Source of the DNA: Clostridia bacterium
Lineage (GTDB): Bacteria; Bacillota; Clostridia; Christensenellales; Borkfalkiaceae
Reading direction: 5' to 3'
Length of the DNA: 64,000 nucleotides
Assembly: GCA_900770945.1 (NCBI GenBank)
Contig: CAAGME010000037.1
Coordinates: 78,336 to 142,335 of the forward strand
Shown: positions 11,609 through 63,120 of the stretch, one piece after another
Numbering within the stretch: position 1 is the first letter of the stretch
How the letters are laid out: each line of letters begins with the position of its first letter
The notes under the pieces: model-generated
What the model was told of the DNA's origin: nothing
Database searches by the model: none
The model's input: the letters and a program-made list of their open reading frames with translations, nothing else
Program-made: the position numbers and the translations under genes

Positions 11609-12973
11609 TTACGCGACTTCGGTTAAGCAGTCGGAAGTTACGGCGATGTCTACGGAAAGCGTTTCGCCGCCGCGCATTACTTTTGTAGTGACGGTGTCGC
11701 CCGCTTTTGCGCCCATAACGGTATCGATGAGAACAAAGCTCCTCGTGACATTTTTCTCCCTGCCGTTTACCGCGACGGAGATTATTTTGTCGCCGACTTT
11801 AAGCTTTCCGTCGGCTTTTGAGCCGGAAGTTATCGCTGCGATTTCCACTTCTTCGACAATCTTCAAAAGCCCCGTTTCGCTATCCAAAACGGCGGAAGAG
11901 GAATTGGATTTGACCTGAACGCCGATAAGCGGCTTTTTGAACGTCGTGTCCGACGTGCCGAGGCAATATTCGACTATGTTTTTAACTACCGGCTCGACCT
12001 GAGCGGACGGAAGGGCGTAATACATGCCCTCGGTGTTTTCCTCGATGTTTTTGGCGTTGACGATGCCGAGAAGTTTGCCTTGCGAATTAAAAAGTCCGCC
12101 GCCCGAGTTGCCCGAGTTGATAGCCGCGTCGAAGCGCATTACGCGGTAAGTAGTGGAGTTGCCGCGCGGGTCGTTCATCGTGATGTATTCGCTGTCAACC
12201 GACAAAACGCCGCTTGTGAGCGATATGCCGTTAGCCCTCGAGTTGCCGACGGCGTAAACCGTTTCGCCCACGCTCGCTTCGTCGGAATCGGCAAAACTTA
12301 CGGCTTTGACGGAAGAATTTTTAATAACTTCGCTTCCGCTTACCTTTAAAAGCGCGATATCGTAAGTCGAAGTTCCGCCGACGTATTCGCAATCGATGGC
12401 GTACTCGTCGCTCTGTTTGCCGTAAATATAAACTTTTATTGATTCTGCAATCTTGTCGGATTTTACCGCCGAAGAGTTGTAAACGACGTGGAAGTTTGTC
12501 ATGATGAGCGCGTTGCCGGCTTCCTTATCGACCGAATAGAAAACGCCCGTTCCGGAAGAAGTAGACTTGCCCGTAGTGGTGCCGCCTCCCCAAAAACCGC
12601 CGCCGGTGCTTGTTCTCACGGTAGAAGTAGCAACGACGTCAACGACCGAAAAAAGCGTGTTGTTGGCGACTACTCCGCTACTTGTCGAGCCGAAGTATTC
12701 CTTTACGAAGTCGGCAAAACTGCCCGTATACGAGCCTTTTTCTACCATTTCCGTATACAGCTCGTAAGCGGTGTAATCGACGTTGAAGTTTTCGCCGTCC
12801 TTGCCGTTAGCGCCTTTTAAGCTCGCAAGCCATTCCTGTTCGGTGCCGGTGAAGCCGTTTCTCACGGCGATATCGTATGCGGAAAGCCCGCTAAGAGAGC
12901 ATGCCGAAAACGTTAAGCTCATAGCGATAACGAGAGCCGTAACTACCGTTAAAACGAAATATTTTTTCTTCAT
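11609..12973 (-). CDS. Secreted trypsin-like serine protease (HtrA/S1C-like) with C-terminal PDZ-like domain
   Basis: Signal peptide MKKKYFVLTVVTALVIAMSLTFSAC; catalytic His (TNFHVV), Asp (DIALLKV) and Ser (GNSGGGLF); C-terminal KVGDKIISVAVNG PDZ-like segment. Confidence 0.8.
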   Translation of the reverse strand: MKKKYFVLTVVTALVIAMSLTFSACSLSGLSAYDIAVRNGFTGTEQEWLASLKGANGKDGENFNVDYTAYELYTEMVEKGSYTGSFADFVKEYFGSTSSGVVANNTLFSVVDVVATSTVRTSTGGGFWGGGTTTGKSTSSGTGVFYSVDKEAGNALIMTNFHVVYNSSAVKSDKIAESIKVYIYGKQSDEYAIDCEYVGGTSTYDIALLKVSGSEVIKNSSVKAVSFADSDEASVGETVYAVGNSRANGISLTSGVLSVDSEYITMNDPRGNSTTYRVMRFDAAINSGNSGGGLFNSQGKLLGIVNAKNIEENTEGMYYALPSAQVEPVVKNIVEYCLGTSDTTFKKPLIGVQVKSNSSSAVLDSETGLLKIVEEVEIAAITSGSKADGKLKVGDKIISVAVNGREKNVTRSFVLIDTVMGAKAGDTVTTKVMRGGETLSVDIAVTSDCLTEVA

Positions 12974-50073: not shown

Positions 50074-51348
50074 ATGCGGGCGGCAAAAAGGAGCGTAAAT
50101 ATGATTGACGAAAGAAAACTCGAAATCTTAACGGAAAGCGCGAAGTACGACGTTTCGTGTTCGTCGTCCGGCTCTTCGAGAAAAAACGTTAAGGGCGGGG
50201 TCGGCAACGCAAGCTACGGCGGAATTTGCCATTCGTTTACGCAGGACGGGCGGTGCATATCGCTACTTAAAATCCTTTCGTCGAACAAATGCGTGTACGA
50301 CTGCTTATATTGCGTAAACCGCCGCAGCAACGACGTTCCGCGCGAGTCCGCCTCGCCCGAGGAGATTTGCGAGCTTGTCATGAATTTTTACAGGCGAAAC
50401 TACATAGAAGGGCTTTTCTTGTCCTCCGCGGTGGAACGCAGCCCCGACTACACTATGGAACGGCTTTTAGAAGTCGTAATGCGGCTAAGAAAGCTTTACT
50501 GTTTTCACGGGTACATTCACTTAAAAGGCATACCCGGGGCGAGTAAATATCTCTTAAACAAAGCCGCAAAATACGTTGACAGAATGAGTTGCAACATAGA
50601 GCTTCCGAGCGAGAAAAGCCTTAAACTTTTAGCTCCGCAAAAGTCAAAAACCGCGCTTATCGAGCCGATGGGAATGTTAGCGGAAAATTTGCGGCAAGCA
50701 AAAACGGAGCGCAACAAAAAGTTTTTGCCGGCAGGACAGACAACGCAAATGATTGTCGGGGCATCGCGCGAGACGGATGGGCAGATAATAAGGCTTACGC
50801 AGGCTTTATACAAAAAATTCGATATGAAGCGAGTGTATTTTTCATCGTATATCCCGACTAATTTTACTTCAAACCTCCTGCCCGCCCGCCCCGCCGGGCT
50901 TTTGCGCGAACACCGCCTTTATCAAGCCGACTGGTTAATGCGGTTTTACGGGTTCAGAGCCGACGAAATTTCCGACGAGAACGAAGACCTCGATTTAACG
51001 ATGGACCCCAAGTGCCGCTGGGCTTTGCGCCACCCCGAGTTTTTCCCGGTGGAAGTAAACGCCGCCCCGCCGGAAGTTTTGCTACGCGTTCCCGGGATAG
51101 GGTTCAAAAGCGCGTACAAGATAGTTTCCGCGCGGAGGTATTCCAAGCTTGATTTTTGCGACCTTGTCAAGCTCCGCGTGGTTTTAAAGCGAGCGGCGCA
51201 TTTTGTCACTTGCGGCGGCAAGTTCATCGGCGACGAAAAAAACGCTCAACGGCTTTTGCTTCTACCCGAAGCCGAGCAAAAATACGAACAACTGTCTCTC
51301 TTTTCTTCGCCGGAAATAAGCTTAAGCGCGTTAACGGGGCAGTTATGA
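50074..51348 (+). CDS. Putative DNA modification/repair radical SAM protein (TIGR03916-like)
   Basis: CVYDCLYC (Cx3Cx2C) radical SAM cluster motif; 424 aa; stop overlaps the start of the partner gene (ATGA). Confidence 0.75.
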   Translation: MRAAKRSVNMIDERKLEILTESAKYDVSCSSSGSSRKNVKGGVGNASYGGICHSFTQDGRCISLLKILSSNKCVYDCLYCVNRRSNDVPRESASPEEICELVMNFYRRNYIEGLFLSSAVERSPDYTMERLLEVVMRLRKLYCFHGYIHLKGIPGASKYLLNKAAKYVDRMSCNIELPSEKSLKLLAPQKSKTALIEPMGMLAENLRQAKTERNKKFLPAGQTTQMIVGASRETDGQIIRLTQALYKKFDMKRVYFSSYIPTNFTSNLLPARPAGLLREHRLYQADWLMRFYGFRADEISDENEDLDLTMDPKCRWALRHPEFFPVEVNAAPPEVLLRVPGIGFKSAYKIVSARRYSKLDFCDLVKLRVVLKRAAHFVTCGGKFIGDEKNAQRLLLLPEAEQKYEQLSLFSSPEISLSALTGQL

Positions 51349-52091
51349 TTTATTTCACAAAAAGCGGGCGCGACGGAATTTTGTGCGCTCTATACGAAAG
51401 CTTCACTCAAAAAGAATCCCCTTCCGCCGTGTATTCGTCAAGCTTTGCTCCCGTTATCGGTGAAGAGGTAAAAGAGATAGTTTTTGACAAAGAAAACGCC
51501 GTCAGAGTAAAAAAAGGCATTATCAAACACGGGGGTATAAGCCTGTTATCGGCACTTTTTTATCCTTTGCGTTCATATTCGGACGATAAAGAAACGGTGG
51601 TTTTCAAAGCCGCCGAGCGGTGCCTTGACATGCGGAAAAACGTCCTCGATAATTTTTCCGATAGGTTCGTTTTAAGGCATTACGAGCTTACAAAGCAAAT
51701 AAGTTACGAGGTTCACAGAATGGAAGGTTTTTTGCGTTTTGAAGAAGCCGAGGGCGGATATTATGCGCGCTTTACTCCCGACAACGACATTATAGACCTT
51801 GTCGCCCCGCACTTTAAAAGAAGATTTTCCGACGAAAAATTCATCATTCACGACATAAAGCGCAACAAGCTTTGCTTTTTCGACGGCGAAGCCCTGCATT
51901 TTTTAAAACCCGATAAGCCCGTCACGGTGTATTTGACGGCAAACGAGCAAGCTTATTCTTCGCTTTGGAAAAAATATTTTAAGGCGGTAAGCATAGCGGA
52001 GCGCAAAAACGAACGCTTACAAGACAATTGGCTTCCTCGCCGCTACCGCGCCACCATGTTGGAATTCTCCCCTCCCGAAAACTTTAACTAA
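51345..52091 (+). CDS. Probable DNA metabolism protein, uracil-DNA-glycosylase-superfamily (TIGR03915-like) partner of the radical SAM protein
   Basis: Start reset to MIYFTKSG at 51345 (4-nt overlap with the upstream stop); 248 aa; conserved pairing with the TIGR03916 radical SAM. Confidence 0.65.
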   Translation: MIYFTKSGRDGILCALYESFTQKESPSAVYSSSFAPVIGEEVKEIVFDKENAVRVKKGIIKHGGISLLSALFYPLRSYSDDKETVVFKAAERCLDMRKNVLDNFSDRFVLRHYELTKQISYEVHRMEGFLRFEEAEGGYYARFTPDNDIIDLVAPHFKRRFSDEKFIIHDIKRNKLCFFDGEALHFLKPDKPVTVYLTANEQAYSSLWKKYFKAVSIAERKNERLQDNWLPRRYRATMLEFSPPENFN

Positions 52092-52524
52092 AAAAATTTT
52101 CGGTCGATGTTTTTTTAGAGCCGGCTTTCGCCCCTCCACTCAAAAACAATCGACCGATTTTTTTTGGTTTTTAATCGTTCGCCCTTTGTCCGCTTATAAG
52201 CAACTCCGGCATAATGGTAGCATTTAAAATTACTTAGACCTAAAACCTCAAATCCGAGATTTCGGTAACGGAAAATAGCGATTCCGATAACTTTAAACAC
52301 TTAAAAGGTATAACCACAAGTATATTTTATCGTTAATTTTGTTGTTTAACAAGCAAACCGATTTAAAAACATATTCAAAAAAAATCTTCATCAACGCACA
52401 AGAGCGTTTCGTCCGAGATTTTTTCTTTTGTGACGATGTTATCGACAAGCACCATCGAAACACCGATTTATCTTGCGAATCGATTTATGGTTCACAACCA
52501 TTTTTTCTCTATCAACAAATATTA

Positions 52525-52620
52525 ACGTAAGATATGCAGGAATCGTTTGGCAAACGCCTCCTGCGTAATGTCTATCGGGTTATCGTCCCACATTGTATCA
52601 AGTATCTTATTTTTGCTCAT
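52525..52620 (-). CDS. Candidate 32-aa small ORF downstream of the ASCH gene
   Basis: MSKNKILDTMWDDNPIDITQEAFAKRFLHILR, preceded by a strong RBS AGGAGAG with an 8-nt spacer, 44 nt downstream of the ASCH stop; no homology recognised. Confidence 0.25.
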
Positions 52621-52664
52621 TTATAAAACTCTCCTGATGATTTTTCTACTTTCAATTGATGTTT

Positions 52665-53036
52665 TTAAATGTATACGAAGGATTGCGGCGCGGATTTAAT
52701 GCCGTATTCCAATAAAGTTTTAGGCTCATCATAAACTTTAATTTTGCCTAATTTATAAGCGTAGGCAATTTCTTTTCCCTCAAAATACTCATCGAAAAAT
52801 GCTTTGCTGATGCCGGATTCTTCTTTTGTAAGTTTCCACAATTCTTCAGGCGAATACATTAAAACGTCTATAATTTCTGCTTCTGCAACAATTCTTTTTA
52901 CGGGAGTGGTTTCGTAAATAACGATGGAAGTAATATCTTGTTTTGCTGCAATTTTTCTATATTCGTATTTCTTGATGCCTTTAATAATATTTTGCACGTG
53001 CTCAGGGTTGATGGATATTAATATTTTCTTTTTCAT
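52665..53036 (-). CDS. Standalone ASCH (PUA-like) domain protein, YqfB-like
   Basis: 123 aa. ILISINPEHVQNIIKGIKKYEYRK matches the ASCH N-terminal G-x-K-x-x-E-x-R signature. Start codon sits 3 nt after the stop of the 618-aa gene, with its GGAGG RBS inside that gene's end. Confidence 0.7.
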   Translation of the reverse strand: MKKKILISINPEHVQNIIKGIKKYEYRKIAAKQDITSIVIYETTPVKRIVAEAEIIDVLMYSPEELWKLTKEESGISKAFFDEYFEGKEIAYAYKLGKIKVYDEPKTLLEYGIKSAPQSFVYI

Positions 53037-53039
53037 TTT

Positions 53040-54896
53040 TTATTCCTCCATTCCTAATTTATAAATAGTGTCAAATTGCTCTTGGGTTATAAACGTAAAC
53101 GGGCGCGGTCCTGAATACTTATCTAAAACACCGTAATCTCTTAATTCGTTTAATGTAACCTTATGATTAAATGGTTTGTAATCTAAAATCGTTACTACGG
53201 TAGAATATTTACTATATACAGCTCGGATATCTTTTTCATTGAAAATTGATTTATCCTTACAAATACTTATACACTCTTCGACGTTCTTAGTTTTTATGAC
53301 TTCTTGAACAATCGCCATACCGGTAACCACCGAAGAGTAATTTTTGTACAACCCTTCTCCCATTCTATAAATTAAAACCATGTCTCCCACTTTTGCCGGA
53401 ATATTAAACGCTCCCGTTAAATATATCTTCTCGATTGCATATCTATGAGCAAGGTTATCTTCATATAAATGCATATCTTCGTTCTTCAAAATATTATCAG
53501 GAAATAAATCCGTATGATATTTAGCATAAATAGGAAGAAAGTAATGATTTCGATCCTTTTTCAAAATAGGATAATTGAACTTTGGCGTTTCAGCATCGTT
53601 ATACTGTTTCATATCTTTTACAAGCACTAATTCGCCGTTCGATTTCTTATAGCCGTGCTTAACAAAACCCCATTGTTCCATTATACTTTTTAATGCGCAA
53701 ACTTCCTGCCTTTTATCTTCAAAAAGCGTTACATACGCTTCATCAACATTCCACTTGACAGCATTCTCAAAAATAATCTTTAAGAAACGTTCTCCCAAAC
53801 GGAAACCTGTGCGCTCGATCTTAAAAGTTCCAACTTTTAATCTTCTTTTCGGAGATAATATGGGCTCTATATCAGAATAGTTTTCGTTTTCATCTTCTAT
53901 TTTAAGATATAAAAAGCCTTTTAATTTTTCGTCATTATCTTCAAAAACGTATGCTTTTTCATTGCCTTTTTTCTTAAACCAATCATCAAACTTTTTTCCT
54001 TCATAATCTTCTCTTAGAGTATCAAAGAAAGAGCTGTTTATATCCACCTCGTCGAATCGTTTTAATTTAACCGCAAGCATTTTGTATTCAATGTTTTTTG
54101 GATACGTCCTTTCAAAATACTCTAACAGTTCAGCAGATGTAACGACTTTATCTCTGATAAACAAATCTTTTGCTTTTTTCAAGATTGCGTTATCATCGGT
54201 AAGCAGAATACCAACATTATCATTATATACTTCTAAAAGTAAAGCATTATCAATTTTGCTATTTGCATCTTGCGAATATTGATTCACAATATGTTCAAAG
54301 TAATCATCTTTTTCTGAAGTGAACGAAGGCAAGATGTCATAAGAACTTGCTTTAGCAAGCATTGCATTTTTTACTTTCTCGTCTTTATGCGATTCCAATT
54401 CCCCTATAGTGCTTTTATGTAGATATTTCTTTAATTGTTTTTTATCGAACCATTTAAACAAGTTGCTTATCTCGAACGAAACATTATTACTGCTTTCTCT
54501 TTTAATAAAAATATTTGTATCAAGCAAAATACTTGATTTTGAATAGTCAATATATAACGGCTCTATTTCAAATGCGACGATTCCGTAACGGTCAACTTCA
54601 TCTTTAGAATAAAATTTATAACACTCTTTTAAAGTAGCGTCTAATGAAGTGAAAATGTTTTTAAAATCTTGTTCCCAATTTTCAATTAAAGCTTCATTCC
54701 ACGAACTATAAACTTTAATTCCTTTTATAGTTGCTCTAACGAAGTAATCTTTATTTTGATTTGATATCAAAACGAAAGTGTCGCCCACTTTTGCCTGCAT
54801 CCTTTCAGGCGACGCTAACCGATATTCGTGTTTTTTTACTCTGTTTTTAATGTCGCTTATAAATTTATCTCTAATTTTTAAATAATATGTTTTCAT
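53040..54896 (-). CDS. Multidomain fusion protein: ASCH (aa 1-115), PIN nuclease (~120-265), GNAT acetyltransferase (~305-430), C-terminal PUA-like/EVE-like beta-barrel (~440-618)
   Basis: N-terminus LKIRDKFISDIKNRVKKHEYRL (ASCH-like). SILLDTNIFI…GELES…GILLTDDNAIL (PIN acidic quartet). VGTFKIERTGFRLGERFLKIIFENA and ALKSIMEQWGFVKHGY (GNAT motifs A and B). C-terminal KVGDMVLIYRMGEG…VVTGMAIVQEV (EVE/PUA-like). AT-rich codon usage unlike the neighbours. Confidence 0.6.
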   Translation of the reverse strand: MKTYYLKIRDKFISDIKNRVKKHEYRLASPERMQAKVGDTFVLISNQNKDYFVRATIKGIKVYSSWNEALIENWEQDFKNIFTSLDATLKECYKFYSKDEVDRYGIVAFEIEPLYIDYSKSSILLDTNIFIKRESSNNVSFEISNLFKWFDKKQLKKYLHKSTIGELESHKDEKVKNAMLAKASSYDILPSFTSEKDDYFEHIVNQYSQDANSKIDNALLLEVYNDNVGILLTDDNAILKKAKDLFIRDKVVTSAELLEYFERTYPKNIEYKMLAVKLKRFDEVDINSSFFDTLREDYEGKKFDDWFKKKGNEKAYVFEDNDEKLKGFLYLKIEDENENYSDIEPILSPKRRLKVGTFKIERTGFRLGERFLKIIFENAVKWNVDEAYVTLFEDKRQEVCALKSIMEQWGFVKHGYKKSNGELVLVKDMKQYNDAETPKFNYPILKKDRNHYFLPIYAKYHTDLFPDNILKNEDMHLYEDNLAHRYAIEKIYLTGAFNIPAKVGDMVLIYRMGEGLYKNYSSVVTGMAIVQEVIKTKNVEECISICKDKSIFNEKDIRAVYSKYSTVVTILDYKPFNHKVTLNELRDYGVLDKYSGPRPFTFITQEQFDTIYKLGMEE

Positions 54897-54973
54897 TTAT
54901 TATTCTCTCAATTTATCCTAAAAAGTATAAGTTTCTTTTTCTTCTCTAAGTTCTTTCAATATAAGCATATTTT

Positions 54974-55192
54974 TTAAACTTTAAAATAATCGTCAAGCCC
55001 TAAAAGGTAATCCGCGCTTTCGTTGAGCAATTTGCATAGGTTAAACAACACTTCGACCGACGGCAAGTTTTCACCGTTTTTCCAATTCGTAATATTGCTT
55101 TCGGAAATATTCAACTTTTCGGCGATTTCCTTTTGAGAAAGCCCGCTGCTTTTTATCGCTTCTGCAATTCTTTCGCTAAACTTCATAATCAC
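54974..55192 (-). CDS. XRE-family helix-turn-helix transcriptional regulator
   Basis: 72 aa; LSQKEIAEKLNISESNITNWKNGENLPSVEVLFNLCKLL is a canonical HTH_XRE. Confidence 0.8.
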   Translation of the reverse strand: MIMKFSERIAEAIKSSGLSQKEIAEKLNISESNITNWKNGENLPSVEVLFNLCKLLNESADYLLGLDDYFKV

Positions 55193-55293
55193 AATTACAC
55201 CTCATTTTTAATTCAGTTTAACAGAATTAAATGCGAAATTGTTGACATTTCAGTCTTACTGAAGTATAATTAACACACACAGGGAGATTTATT

Positions 55294-55650
55294 ATGTTTT
55301 GTAAAAATTGCGGAAAGGAAGTTGACGAAAAGGCTTACGTTTGCATACATTGCGGGTGCAAGATAGAGAGCAAAGAAGAAAAAACGGAAAATAACGTTTT
55401 TGAGAGTTTATCGCAAGCGTTTTCGGTTATCGCGCTTGTAGGGATTTTAGTTTATATTATTTTTTCCGACGCAAAAAACGCCTTGCTTGTTTTAAAAATA
55501 GCGAGCTTGGGCGGCACTATTGCGGCTTTTATCGGCGCGGTTTTCGGGAAAATAAAAAACGACGACGATAGCAATTTTTTCCACAATATCGTTGAATTTC
55601 TTATTTGCATAGCTTTGATTTTTAAAACTTTAATAAATTTTTCGGAATAA
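55294..55650 (+). CDS. Zinc-ribbon membrane protein (N-terminal CxxC…CxxC, then 2-3 TM helices)
   Basis: MFCKNCGKEVDEKAYVCIHCGC followed by hydrophobic helices; divergent from the HTH gene; terminator ctcggg…cccgag plus a T-run at 55654-55700. Confidence 0.55.
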   Translation: MFCKNCGKEVDEKAYVCIHCGCKIESKEEKTENNVFESLSQAFSVIALVGILVYIIFSDAKNALLVLKIASLGGTIAAFIGAVFGKIKNDDDSNFFHNIVEFLICIALIFKTLINFSE

Positions 55651-55701
55651 AAAACTCGGGAATCATTAGCGACGAAACCCGAGTAAATTATTTTTTTCTT
55701 T

Positions 55702-61910: not shown

Positions 61911-62471
61911 TTAAACGGGTTTTCGCTTTTTTGTTTGATTTTTGGAACTTGAAAGGCTTTCCAACTCGTCGGGAGTCGGGTCGACTTTAAAATGCGCTGA
62001 GAATATATATAATCTTTGCGATTGATAAATCATTCTTGCAACTCTTACCCTGGTTACCAACTCATCCATAGGCACGCGAAGTCCTTTTTGATACCATTCA
62101 TAAGGCTCGCTTAGATTGTAAAGATATTTAGAATCGATAGGACTGTATCCGTCAAAACTCACTGCTTTTCTATCATTTACGGCACTTTCAAAGTCGTCGC
62201 TTTTCGTGGCAGAAAAGTCCTCAAAAAACTCATCGTCACGTTCGGTTGTTTGGAAAACATAGTATTCCGTGCCGTCACCGTCAAACCCGACTGTTGTTCC
62301 TCTATTATGATATATGCATTCCCATTCTTCCGGAATATTTATTTTTAATTCTTTATTAGCTTTCGAGCGATAATCTATATTTCGATGACTACAACGATAA
62401 GAACAAAAGCCACAAAGAGAGCAAACGGCAACAACTAATACAATAATAGTTACTATCTTACCTTTTTTCAT
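61911..62471 (-). CDS. Membrane-anchored hypothetical protein, paralog A (signal-anchor with Cys-rich juxtamembrane segment)
   Basis: MKKGKIVTIIVLVVAVCSLCGFCSYRCSH… start at the ATG at 62471 with AAAGGAGAGG RBS. Shares N- and C-termini (…HFKVDPTPDELESLSSS) with the adjacent paralog. Confidence 0.6.
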   Translation of the reverse strand: MKKGKIVTIIVLVVAVCSLCGFCSYRCSHRNIDYRSKANKELKINIPEEWECIYHNRGTTVGFDGDGTEYYVFQTTERDDEFFEDFSATKSDDFESAVNDRKAVSFDGYSPIDSKYLYNLSEPYEWYQKGLRVPMDELVTRVRVARMIYQSQRLYIFSAHFKVDPTPDELESLSSSKNQTKKRKPV

Positions 62472-62553: not shown

Positions 62554-63120
62554 TTAGTAAATTTTTCTATACGGCAATTTTCTTTCGGAACTTGAAAGGC
62601 TTTCCAACTCGTCGGGAGTCGGGTCGACTTTAAAATGATCCGCAAATATATACAATCTTTCCGATTGATAAATCATATATACTTTTCTTAAGCACGTTAC
62701 GAGTTCGTGTTTTGGTACACGCACATCTTTTTGATACCATTCGTAAGGTTCGCTAAAATCAAAAAGGTATTCCGAATCTATGTACATATGTTTATCAAGG
62801 TGAATACCTTCATCAAAGTTGATTCTCTTTTCTTCGATGACTTCTTCTTCAAAGTCCGTATCCGGTATCGCTGAAAAATCTTTGAAAAATTCTTCATCAC
62901 GCTCGGTTGTTTGAAAAACATAGTATTCCGTACCTTCGCCGTTAAAATAAGTACCACCATTATAATACGGGCATTCCCATTCTTCGGGTATATTTAATTT
63001 AAACTCCATATTAGCCAGTGAGCGATAGTCCGTATGGCTACAGCGATAAGAACAAAACCCGCAAAAAGCGCAAACAGCAACAACTAATACAATAATAGTT
63101 ACTATCTTACCTTTTTTCAT
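62554..63120 (-). CDS. Membrane-anchored hypothetical protein, paralog B
   Basis: Identical RBS and leader to paralog A; MKKGKIVTIIVLVVAVCAFCGFCSYRCSH…EWECPYYNGG…YEWYQKDVRVP. Confidence 0.6.
   Translation of the reverse strand: MKKGKIVTIIVLVVAVCAFCGFCSYRCSHTDYRSLANMEFKLNIPEEWECPYYNGGTYFNGEGTEYYVFQTTERDEEFFKDFSAIPDTDFEEEVIEEKRINFDEGIHLDKHMYIDSEYLFDFSEPYEWYQKDVRVPKHELVTCLRKVYMIYQSERLYIFADHFKVDPTPDELESLSSSERKLPYRKIY

Follow-up and report, generated by a model that had tools for sequence, protein, structure and literature searches.

A four-domain ASCH-PIN-GNAT-EVE protein and its ASCH partner, members of the PDC-M11 family, at a mosaic defense hotspot in a Clostridia bacterium

The (PIN)-GNAT-EVE operon, in which a GNAT-EVE protein with or without a PIN domain is encoded next to an ASCH protein, was first described by Iyer et al. 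(2013), as summarized in two later papers (PMC7641849; PMC5499597). Matelska et al. (2017) assigned the PIN domains of the family to PIN_15/PIN_17 and argued that its GNAT domain lacks motif A and may be catalytically dead (PMC5499597). According to Bell, Wolf, and Koonin (2020), nearly all (PIN)-GNAT-EVE operons carry a gene for an ASCH protein, PIN-GNAT-EVE genes are found near type I restriction-modification (R-M) and other defense systems and GNAT-EVE genes in prophages, an ASCH-HsdS fusion occurs in Methanohalophilus, and none of these modules had yet been characterized (PMC7641849). In PADLOC, the operon is cataloged as PDC-M11, "PDC" entries being guilt-by-association candidates and not validated systems. 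Here we analyze a member of this family in a 64,000-nucleotide (nt) stretch of contig CAAGME010000037.1 from a Clostridia bacterium (the window, to which all coordinates refer unless a locus is named). It consists of two adjacent genes, A (618 amino acids [aa]) and B (123 aa), located as listed in Table 1; L-numbers denote the compared loci or contigs that carry relatives of the site or of A-B. We consider it probable that A is an effector or toxin and that B neutralizes it.

There is little room for doubt that A-B belongs to the (PIN)-GNAT-EVE + ASCH (PDC-M11) family. The best PDC-M11A hidden Markov model (PDLC04422, E = 5.3e-152) aligns residues 123–615 of A with positions 3–492 of the 501-position profile, and another five PDC-M11A models match A at E values from 1e-99 to 6.5e-45; B matches a PDC-M11B model (PDLC04425) at 5.9e-40. 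The PADLOC search suggested in a first-pass annotation of the window, made from the letters alone, thereby gave a match for both genes, over nearly the full profile length and with the gene order and adjacency of PDC-M11. The difference lies at the N terminus: the best PDC-M11A model begins at residue 123, and a PH0355-like ASCH domain (residues 1–118) is extra in A. With the operons of the literature, A-B shares the fusion of PIN, GNAT, and EVE, the second, PUA-like (ASCH) protein, the type I R-M and other defense neighbors, and the sporadic, mobile distribution; it differs from them in the additional N-terminal ASCH domain of A, in the lack of an AAA_17 ATPase at the window locus, and in that B carries no fused helix-turn-helix (HTH) domain, a separate, non-orthologous HTH gene lying upstream of A instead. 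The published arrangement is seen on Rhizobium etli plasmid pRetIE4771b (L031, 2124–5108), where an HTH-ASCH fusion (301 aa), a PIN-GNAT-EVE protein (512 aa), and a small AAA ATPase are encoded in an order that differs from that of the window and fits the literature description; the HTH-ASCH protein is 32% identical to B (E = 1e-18) and contains the ASCH octapeptide discussed below. The view taken in the first-pass annotation, that this is not a described system, is not supported: besides the descriptions by Iyer et al. (2013), Bell et al. (2020), and Matelska et al. (2017), there are the PDC-M11 entry and a phage record (PV340567.1) that annotates the homologous pair. The operon has been cataloged and described computationally in 2013, 2017, and 2020, A-B is its four-domain, ASCH-extended form, and the locus by itself brings nothing fundamentally new to the family. 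We found no experimental report of anti-phage activity of PDC-M11, the sole paper naming it being one that lists PADLOC output, and no mechanism for the family in the accessible literature.

The phage record just mentioned is a 2025 GenBank entry for Escherichia phage PhiR47_2 (PV340567.1), in which the pair is annotated as "GevT toxin" and "GevA antitoxin"; the names stand as the depositors' annotation only, no paper behind them having been found in the literature searched. Both components are homologous to those of the window, with 36% identity between GevT and residues 269–615 of A (E = 5e-52) and 41% between GevA and B (E = 4e-33), and the pair has the same toxin-then-antitoxin order and tight coupling as A-B. 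GevT (357 aa), on the other hand, has neither the ASCH nor the PIN domain, and A is thus an extended relative of it, not an orthologue. The settings differ as well: A-B occupies a chromosomal hotspot, whereas gevT/gevA lie in a lambdoid prophage immunity region (L026, 2243–4429), directly after cI and ahead of kil/gam. At the position after cI, phage lambda has rexAB, and the position is typical of exclusion genes expressed in the lysogen. In a tblastn search of phage genomes, GNAT-EVE homologs were found in 16 phage records, and in the five records inspected the GNAT-EVE gene was in every case followed by a ~125-aa gene overlapping its 3′ end.

The domain string first read for this locus, ASCH-PIN-GNAT-PUA-like with a separate ASCH protein, holds up in PHROGs, in AlphaFold/Foldseek, and in Pfam searches across the family. 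In A itself, Pfam detects ASCH at residues 6–114 (E = 2e-8), with PIN_12 (0.0019) and EVE (0.008) below threshold and no match for GNAT; residues 278–418 match the PHROGs "acetyltransferase" family at 1.2e-19. No NCBIfam family was found for A, and a profile search against PDB sequences came back almost empty (Naa50 at 0.07, PIN at 0.9), so that fold searches were required. An AlphaFold model of A built with 36 homologs as input (mean predicted local distance difference test [pLDDT] score 81.8) matched the PH0355 ASCH protein, ZmASCH, and numerous GNATs in Foldseek; its PIN fold is VapC-like, that is, of the RNase type, and A carries no DNA endonuclease domain (PD-(D/E)xK, HNH, PLD, or GIY-YIG). 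B is recognizable as an ASCH protein by sequence (Pfam, 1.6e-5; ZmASCH, 1e-7), and its AlphaFold2 model (pLDDT 88.3) matches ZmASCH (TMq 0.88), TthASCH (9e-7), YqfB (TMt 0.70), TRIP4-ASCH, and EOLA1, with the N-terminal domains of VcaM4I and McrB among the weaker matches. The N-terminal ASCH domain of A resembles B in the octapeptide region only (E = 0.022), and the two thus belong to different ASCH subfamilies. B begins 3 nt past the stop codon of A, on the same strand, with a plausible ribosome-binding site (RBS) kept in this arrangement, and both genes are full length with every conserved residue intact.

An exhaustive search of 1.84 billion representative sequences returned 1,587 clusters at E ≤ 1e-3, 261 of them at E ≤ 1e-30, with hosts that include gut Firmicutes, proteobacterial prophages, plasmids, and archaeal viruses. 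Members fall into length classes of ~615 aa (ASCH-PIN-GNAT-EVE, aligned from residue 1 of the query), ~500 aa (PIN-GNAT-EVE, from residue ~123), and ~350 aa (GNAT-EVE, from residue ~275). The four-domain form is a minority, with 13 of 63 aligned diverse representatives; it is plentiful in gut metagenomes (>120 clusters at ≥62% identity). Pfam recognizes PIN_3 in 14, EVE in 11, ASCH in 10, and Acetyltransf_1 in 7 of the 63 diverse members. In the alignment of these 63 sequences (27–66% identity; n = 44 for PIN and n = 13 for the N-terminal ASCH domain), conservation is highest in the GNAT domain, where ten residues are invariant in all 63, among them K332, E334, K354, Y388, T390, and E422. Its acetyl-CoA loop, T-G-F-(R/K)-L-G (G364 in 57, R/K366 in 56, and G368 in 60 of the 63), aligns with R-G-I-G-I-G of Naa50 and is non-canonical with respect to R/Q-x-x-G-x-G/A, yet conserved. 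Further on, the counterpart of Y388-x-T390 in Naa50 is the segment Y-L-H, in which the catalytic His of that enzyme lies. Judged from the alignment, the pattern as a whole looks like that of an enzyme under strong purifying selection and not of a decayed domain, which speaks against the degenerate-GNAT view of Matelska et al. (2017). The acidic residues of the PIN domain are also well kept (D126, E134, and D235 in 40–42 of 44, D216 in 39, and E/D166 in 38), as are K21, E/D24, and R26 of the N-terminal ASCH domain (12 of 13), and the octapeptide G-x-K-x-x-E-x-R (G20, K22, E25, and R27 of B) is invariant in 7 ASCH partners from bacteria, phages, and one archaeal virus that are 40–56% identical. 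In full-length pairwise comparisons, identity is 73–91% for B, 68–95% for GNAT, and 53–94% for PIN and EVE, so that B and GNAT evolve more slowly than PIN and EVE.

These comparisons bear on a proposal of Bell, Wolf, and Koonin (2020) in which a host PIN-GNAT-EVE protein is a counter-measure that recognizes and degrades aminoacyl-tRNAs which a phage GNAT-EVE protein has acetylated to the detriment of the host. The split distribution fits it, GNAT-EVE being found in phages and prophages (the 16 phage records above) and the PIN-containing forms beside host defense genes (PMC7641849), but the idea is purely speculative in its source, gives no account of why the two forms have their ASCH partner and invariant GNAT residues in common, and sits poorly with the annotation of the prophage pair as a self-contained toxin and antitoxin. 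We regard it as highly improbable.

Across 10 of 10 distinct contexts, A is followed, at −4 to +27 bp, by a gene for an ASCH protein of 122–125 aa. Directly downstream, on the same strand, lies a type I or type IIG-like R-M methyltransferase gene in 7 of the 9 contexts other than the window; an HNH_5 gene stands between A-B and hsdM in L020-22 and also follows A-B in L002-5, a context with no R-M genes. Elsewhere, Thoeris ThsA/ThsB, integrases, serine recombinases, and relaxases are encoded near A-B. The strong linkage to R-M suggests that the trigger of the system may involve the Hsd complex, in the manner of a PrrC-like guard. As a separate observation, four phage tRNA genes (Ser, Glu, Tyr, and Phe) stand immediately upstream of the GNAT-EVE/ASCH pair of Lactobacillus prophage Lj965 (L028, 804–2899), which may point to a link with tRNA or be mere chance.

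The constancy of the partner and the conservation of GNAT also weaken an analogy drawn early on with type IV restriction (EVE-HNH, SRA-HNH, and EVE-McrB enzymes), under which EVE and ASCH would read modified phage DNA, PIN would destroy it, and GNAT would be a degenerate scaffold. EVE, ASCH, SRA, and YTH are established modified-base readers that type IV enzymes carry in fusion with nucleases (PMC7641849), so PUA-like readers in a defense context are common to both; the weaker structural matches of B to VcaM4I and McrB and the non-canonical motif A of GNAT point the same way, and complementary coverage of modified phage DNA would suit the tight association with type I R-M. Against this, A has no DNA endonuclease domain, and its sole nuclease has a VapC-like, RNase-type fold and is dispensable in the family, being absent from the ~350-aa GNAT-EVE class, so that it cannot be the core effector. 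The domain that would be mere scaffold is instead the most conserved one, ZmASCH, the closest characterized ASCH protein, works on single-stranded (ss) RNA and not on DNA, and a type IV enzyme requires no partner, whereas the ASCH gene always accompanies A and the family needs it; in the phage record, moreover, the pair is named toxin and antitoxin. A DNA-restricting enzyme of this kind is, in our estimate, quite unlikely.

We therefore return to the toxin-antitoxin (TA)-like or defense role, which was also the one put forward in the first-pass annotation and remains the best reading. We think it the likely role of A-B because of the PDC-M11 match, the recurring R-M, Thoeris, HNH, and recombinase neighbors, and the CRISPR-Cas system found at the same site in a relative. 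RNA is somewhat favored over DNA as the target because the PIN domain is VapC-like, because ZmASCH binds and cleaves only ssRNA (PMC5615036), and because aminoacyl-tRNA is, as cited in PMC7641849, what the GNAT toxins of TA systems target. A probably acts as an effector directed at RNA, with acetyltransferase and RNase activity. With such GNAT toxins (TacT, AtaT, KacT) and with VapC, it shares the GNAT fold and the VapC-like PIN fold, respectively, along with tRNA or translation as the plausible target class. It differs from them in that A-B comes without a ribbon-helix-helix/DUF1778 or VapB antitoxin, the partner being an ASCH protein, and in that A fuses GNAT, PIN, and PUA-like readers in one polypeptide and has a non-canonical acetyl-CoA loop.

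A possible course of events is as follows. The EVE domain, together with the N-terminal ASCH domain, would dock A on a modified nucleotide of, most likely, tRNA or another ssRNA, and GNAT would acetylate the target, either by N-acetylation of a base, as in N4-acetylcytidine (ac4C), or on the amine of an aminoacyl-tRNA. In the forms that have it, the VapC-like PIN domain would cleave RNA, and acetylation and cleavage would between them halt translation, as in abortive infection. B would neutralize A, in the version we favor by hydrolyzing the acetyl mark as ASCH ac4C amidohydrolases do, and A would gain the upper hand upon phage infection or when the type I R-M system that usually lies next to A-B is interfered with.

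A precedent for such logic is DarT/DarG, a phage-defense system in which the toxin places a covalent mark on a nucleic acid and the partner enzyme erases it. The constant pairing of a GNAT "writer" with an ASCH "eraser" suggests that A-B may be organized in the same way. The likeness is one of proposed write/erase logic only, that is, of how the systems may work: the folds are unrelated, there is no homology, and DarT/DarG involves ADP-ribosylation of ssDNA, in contrast to the acetylation proposed for A. The pairing has been turned into a testable hypothesis by a 2026 preprint (10.64898/2026.02.27.708502), according to which 19 of 19 ASCH proteins tested, including ZmASCH, TthASCH, TRIP4-ASCH, EOLA1, YqfB, and several Pyrococcus proteins, strip ac4C from tRNA in vitro, and removal requires the Lys and the Glu/Thr of the octapeptide G-x-K-x-x-E/T-x-R. 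In B and its partners, those residues are invariant, and the model of B has the ASCH β-barrel fold. An enzymatic eraser function of the ASCH protein is accordingly possible by analogy, if tentative; the complete cycle, in which GNAT-EVE would N-acetylate a nucleobase (e.g., N4 of cytidine) in tRNA or other RNA and ASCH would deacetylate it in a TA defense system, we find rather doubtful. In such a cycle, deacetylation would be the task also of the ASCH domain fused to A, and the cell would thereby survive until infection. If it proved true, A-B would be an acetyl counterpart of DarT/DarG and would give the ac4C-eraser activity reported for ASCH proteins a biological purpose, in a family that is large, recurrent beside type I R-M, and little studied experimentally.

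Several points weigh against the toxin/antitoxin interpretation or parts of it. The acetyl-CoA loop of GNAT is non-canonical, and the domain is possibly catalytically dead (Matelska et al., 2017; PMC5499597). The K/E/R motif of ASCH is a general signature of the family, so that its conservation is not proof of catalysis; the TRIP4 ASCH domain, a structural match of B, was crystallized with double-stranded DNA, so ASCH may only bind, and Bell et al. (2020) favored DNA binding by the ASCH partner (PMC7641849). It should also be noted that a simple writer/eraser model does not sit easily with an "eraser" ASCH domain on the toxin's own polypeptide, that the PDC entries are candidates and GevT/GevA a GenBank annotation, and that the window copy of A-B has lost its R-M neighbor and its native upstream region and may be inactive or differently regulated.

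This loss can be followed in the DNA. The closest homologs of A (94%) are encoded on metagenome contigs L023 and L024, in the order HTH-A-B-HsdM-KAP NTPase-HsdS-HsdR, and the 94% DNA identity to them extends only from 54898, two bases upstream of the start of A, to 52555, ending 66 bp inside hsdM. The 32-aa open reading frame (ORF) listed in the first-pass annotation does exist, but it is in fact made up of the first 22 codons of hsdM followed by read-through into the adjoining junction; its residues MSKNKILDTMWDDNPIDITQEA match the HsdM N terminus of L023/L024, MSENKILDTMWDDNPIDITQEA, at 21 of 22 positions. The 32-aa ORF and the junction gave no match to what lies downstream of B in five other contexts (genes for HNH_5, DUF4268, and methyltransferases). 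The alignments show that the A-B cassette was cut from an HTH-A-B-hsdM-KAP-hsdS-hsdR element and left with a stump of hsdM.

The ancestry of the cassette lends some substance to the guard idea raised above, namely, that the Hsd complex keeps A-B latent, or is monitored by it, and that inhibition of restriction by a phage sets A-B off against RNA, in which case the window copy, cut off from hsdMSR, would be an orphan, inert or constitutively silenced by B. PrrC, within EcoprrI, is the model for such an arrangement. Both closest relatives have the complete set of hsd genes and the window still carries the stump, a methyltransferase gene follows A-B in 7 of 9 other contexts, and Bell et al. (2020) saw the same association together with the ASCH-HsdS fusion (PMC7641849). 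Yet no R-M genes lie beside the GNAT-EVE/ASCH pairs of prophages or in L002-5 and L013-15, and both ORFs of the window are intact and full length, in an arrangement found identically in 4 contigs. We rate the guard scenario as unlikely; it is compatible with the toxin/antitoxin explanation, as it concerns the trigger and not the chemistry of the effector.

Beyond the stump and 89 bp of junction DNA, the AT-rich stretch that had been taken as non-coding proved to consist of recognizable remains: a 3′ fragment of csn2, a CRISPR leader, and an orphan repeat. The key to it is Christensenella sp. UBA4636 (L011), whose RlmL is 96% identical to that of the window and whose DNA is collinear with it up to the RlmL stop codon (window position 55699). 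There follow ~7.5 kb of different DNA, after which homology returns at window positions 52465–52225. Besides a small ORF and an HTH gene, the insert of L011 holds the whole of a type II-A CRISPR-Cas locus (Cas9, Cas1, Cas2, and Csn2, the last identified by Pfam at 2.1e-18 and PADLOC at 2e-36), and this intact locus sits between the RlmL and DUF4130 genes, that is, at the same site. In the window there are no cas9, cas1, cas2, or csn2 genes and no repeat-spacer array; beyond a 3′ csn2 fragment, the leader, and a single repeat, nothing of the locus is left, and 52210–52465 is thus a CRISPR-Cas relic and not a system. The L011 contig ends inside sequence homologous to the orphan repeat. The repeat was validated through the tracrRNA anti-repeat of L011: a tracrRNA-like anti-repeat (…UUAGCAUUUAAAUUACAUAGCAGUUAAAAUAA…) at ~11612–11665 (−), just upstream of cas9 at 11689 and on the opposite strand, pairs over 34 nt with the orphan repeat at a free energy of −22.2 kcal/mol, compared with a locus-wide mean of −8.7 (SD 2.6). 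Rfam detected no tracrRNA at the L011 anti-repeat, and a search for the anti-repeat allowing 3 mismatches did not detect it. The sole match to the repeat in metagenome contigs lay inside an unrelated ORF and was discarded as chance.

As shown by this comparison, A-B now occupies a site at which a close relative keeps an intact type II-A CRISPR-Cas system, which answers the check, proposed in the first-pass annotation, whether related genomes carry other defense genes there. After RlmL, a third genome (L010) is arranged differently again. The site is a defense hotspot and the island a mosaic, in the order Zn-ribbon gene and HTH gene; A-B with the hsdM stump; the 89-bp junction; csn2, leader, and repeat; a terminator hairpin; and DUF4130. 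The locus is a clean example of defense-hotspot turnover, in which a cassette that had itself been severed from a type I R-M element took the place of CRISPR-Cas9, with the molecular scars of both events, the loss of CRISPR-Cas and the severing from R-M, still visible. With two demonstrable relics side by side and the native upstream region of A replaced, the island might be suspected of being a graveyard of broken defense loci and A-B of being a non-functional passenger. We hold this to be very unlikely, as A and B are full length with all conserved residues intact, the plausible RBS and the 3-nt A-B spacing are retained, and the arrangement is identical in 4 contigs.

The lower-GC character of the block is borne out by its composition: the G+C content (GC) of 52466–55698 is 0.323, against 0.468 ± 0.017 (minimum 0.425) in 270 windows of the same size from the rest of the 64,000 nt (z = −8.7). 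In sliding windows, GC is 0.27–0.36 across the island and ~0.47 outside it, and GC at third codon positions is 0.29 in gene A, as opposed to 0.58–0.60 in the neighboring housekeeping genes. The ORFs of the region are exactly those listed in the first-pass annotation. By Pfam, the island is flanked on the left by a radical-SAM/DUF4130 pair and on the right by an RlmL-like THUMP methyltransferase; the gene order is that of NCBI assembly GCA_902463295.1 (contig CABQEU010000008.1), and the closest relatives of the window are an uncultured Clostridia metagenome-assembled genome and Christensenella sp. UBA4636. The limits of the island were set by BLASTN comparison with relatives and not by edge repeats, homology stopping at 55693–55699, the right junction of the variable block. 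Direct and inverted repeats, tRNA genes, and integrases were sought at the island edges and none was convincing, and there is thus no evidence of a discrete integrative element; Rfam found nothing significant in the island or in the CRISPR locus of L011. The data support horizontal acquisition of the island and its variation between strains. A housekeeping role in tRNA modification was considered for the module and rejected on the low GC, the strain variability, the mobile-element context, and the patchy distribution.

Table 1. Coordinates of features at the A-B locus, numbered on the whole window (MFE, minimum free energy; nt positions of the domains are given with their residue ranges)
Feature	Position	Strand	Remarks
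Likely bidirectional terminator after DUF4130: long hairpin with an A-run and a T-run on its sides	52088..52170	.	inverted repeat I2; MFE -28.4 kcal/mol
Single orphan type II-A CRISPR repeat GTTTTAGGTCTAAGTAATTTTAAATGCTACCATTATG	52210..52246	-	one copy only in the window
CRISPR leader relic	52247..52374	-	collinear with sequence downstream of csn2 in L011 (17737-17862)
csn2 3'-end relic (type II-A), ~30 codons	52375..52465	-	~79% DNA identity to csn2 of Christensenella sp. UBA4636
89-bp junction DNA between hsdM stump and csn2 relic	52466..52554	.	no significant match to L011, L023, L024; weak alignment in A2
Truncated type I R-M hsdM stump ("32-aa ORF")	52522..52620	-	hsdM part 52555-52620; remainder read-through
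Gene B: 123-aa stand-alone ASCH protein	52665..53036	-	PADLOC PDC-M11B
Gene A: 618-aa ASCH-PIN-GNAT-EVE/PUA-like fusion	53040..54896	-	PADLOC PDC-M11A
A, ASCH domain	54543-54896	-	aa 1-118
A, PIN domain	54099-54536	-	aa 121-266
A, GNAT domain	53601-54074	-	aa 275-432
A, EVE-like domain	53043-53564	-	aa 445-618
72-aa XRE-family HTH gene, upstream of A	54974..55192	-	Pfam HTH_3 1.8e-14
7-bp-arm palindrome TTAATTC-N9-GAATTAA, just upstream of promoter	55208-55230	.	read from sequence by eye
Sigma-70 promoter for Zn-ribbon gene, TTGACA-17-TATAAT	55242..55270	+	12/12 consensus match
118-aa Zn-ribbon + predicted membrane protein, divergent from HTH gene	55294..55650	+	Pfam Zn_Ribbon_1 5.1e-5
Terminator-like hairpin between convergent Zn-ribbon and RlmL genes	55645..55700	.	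MFE -12.8

The HTH and Zn-ribbon genes that had been grouped with the module are present as described but are not conserved partners of it, and they were rejected as core components on the grounds that they are not orthologous to their counterparts elsewhere (19–33% identity). An HTH gene is often seen upstream of A in other contexts, where it is non-orthologous (19–33% identity) or absent, and that of the window lies beyond the 94%-identity A-B block; it is probably a local regulator. The Zn-ribbon membrane gene was not met in other A-B contexts, its product has no PADLOC match and is only 19–25% identical to the small membrane ORFs that relatives have at this site, and it belongs to the variable block and not to the A-B cassette. 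In the divergent intergenic region between the two genes, the palindrome and the adjoining promoter form a candidate operator-promoter pair.

Two further observations concern the surroundings of the island. The mechanically called DUF4130 ORF at 51156–52091 (+) has 311 aa, a TTG start, and an overlap of ~190 bp with the radical-SAM gene; its product is 248 aa in the NCBI annotation, and the shorter start is likelier. A second low-GC patch (GC 0.36–0.39) holds two ~187-aa genes at 61911–62471 (−) and 62554–63120 (−), which have no PADLOC match and no Pfam match on record and sit between a Zn_ribbon_9 gene and the UPF0122/ffh genes.

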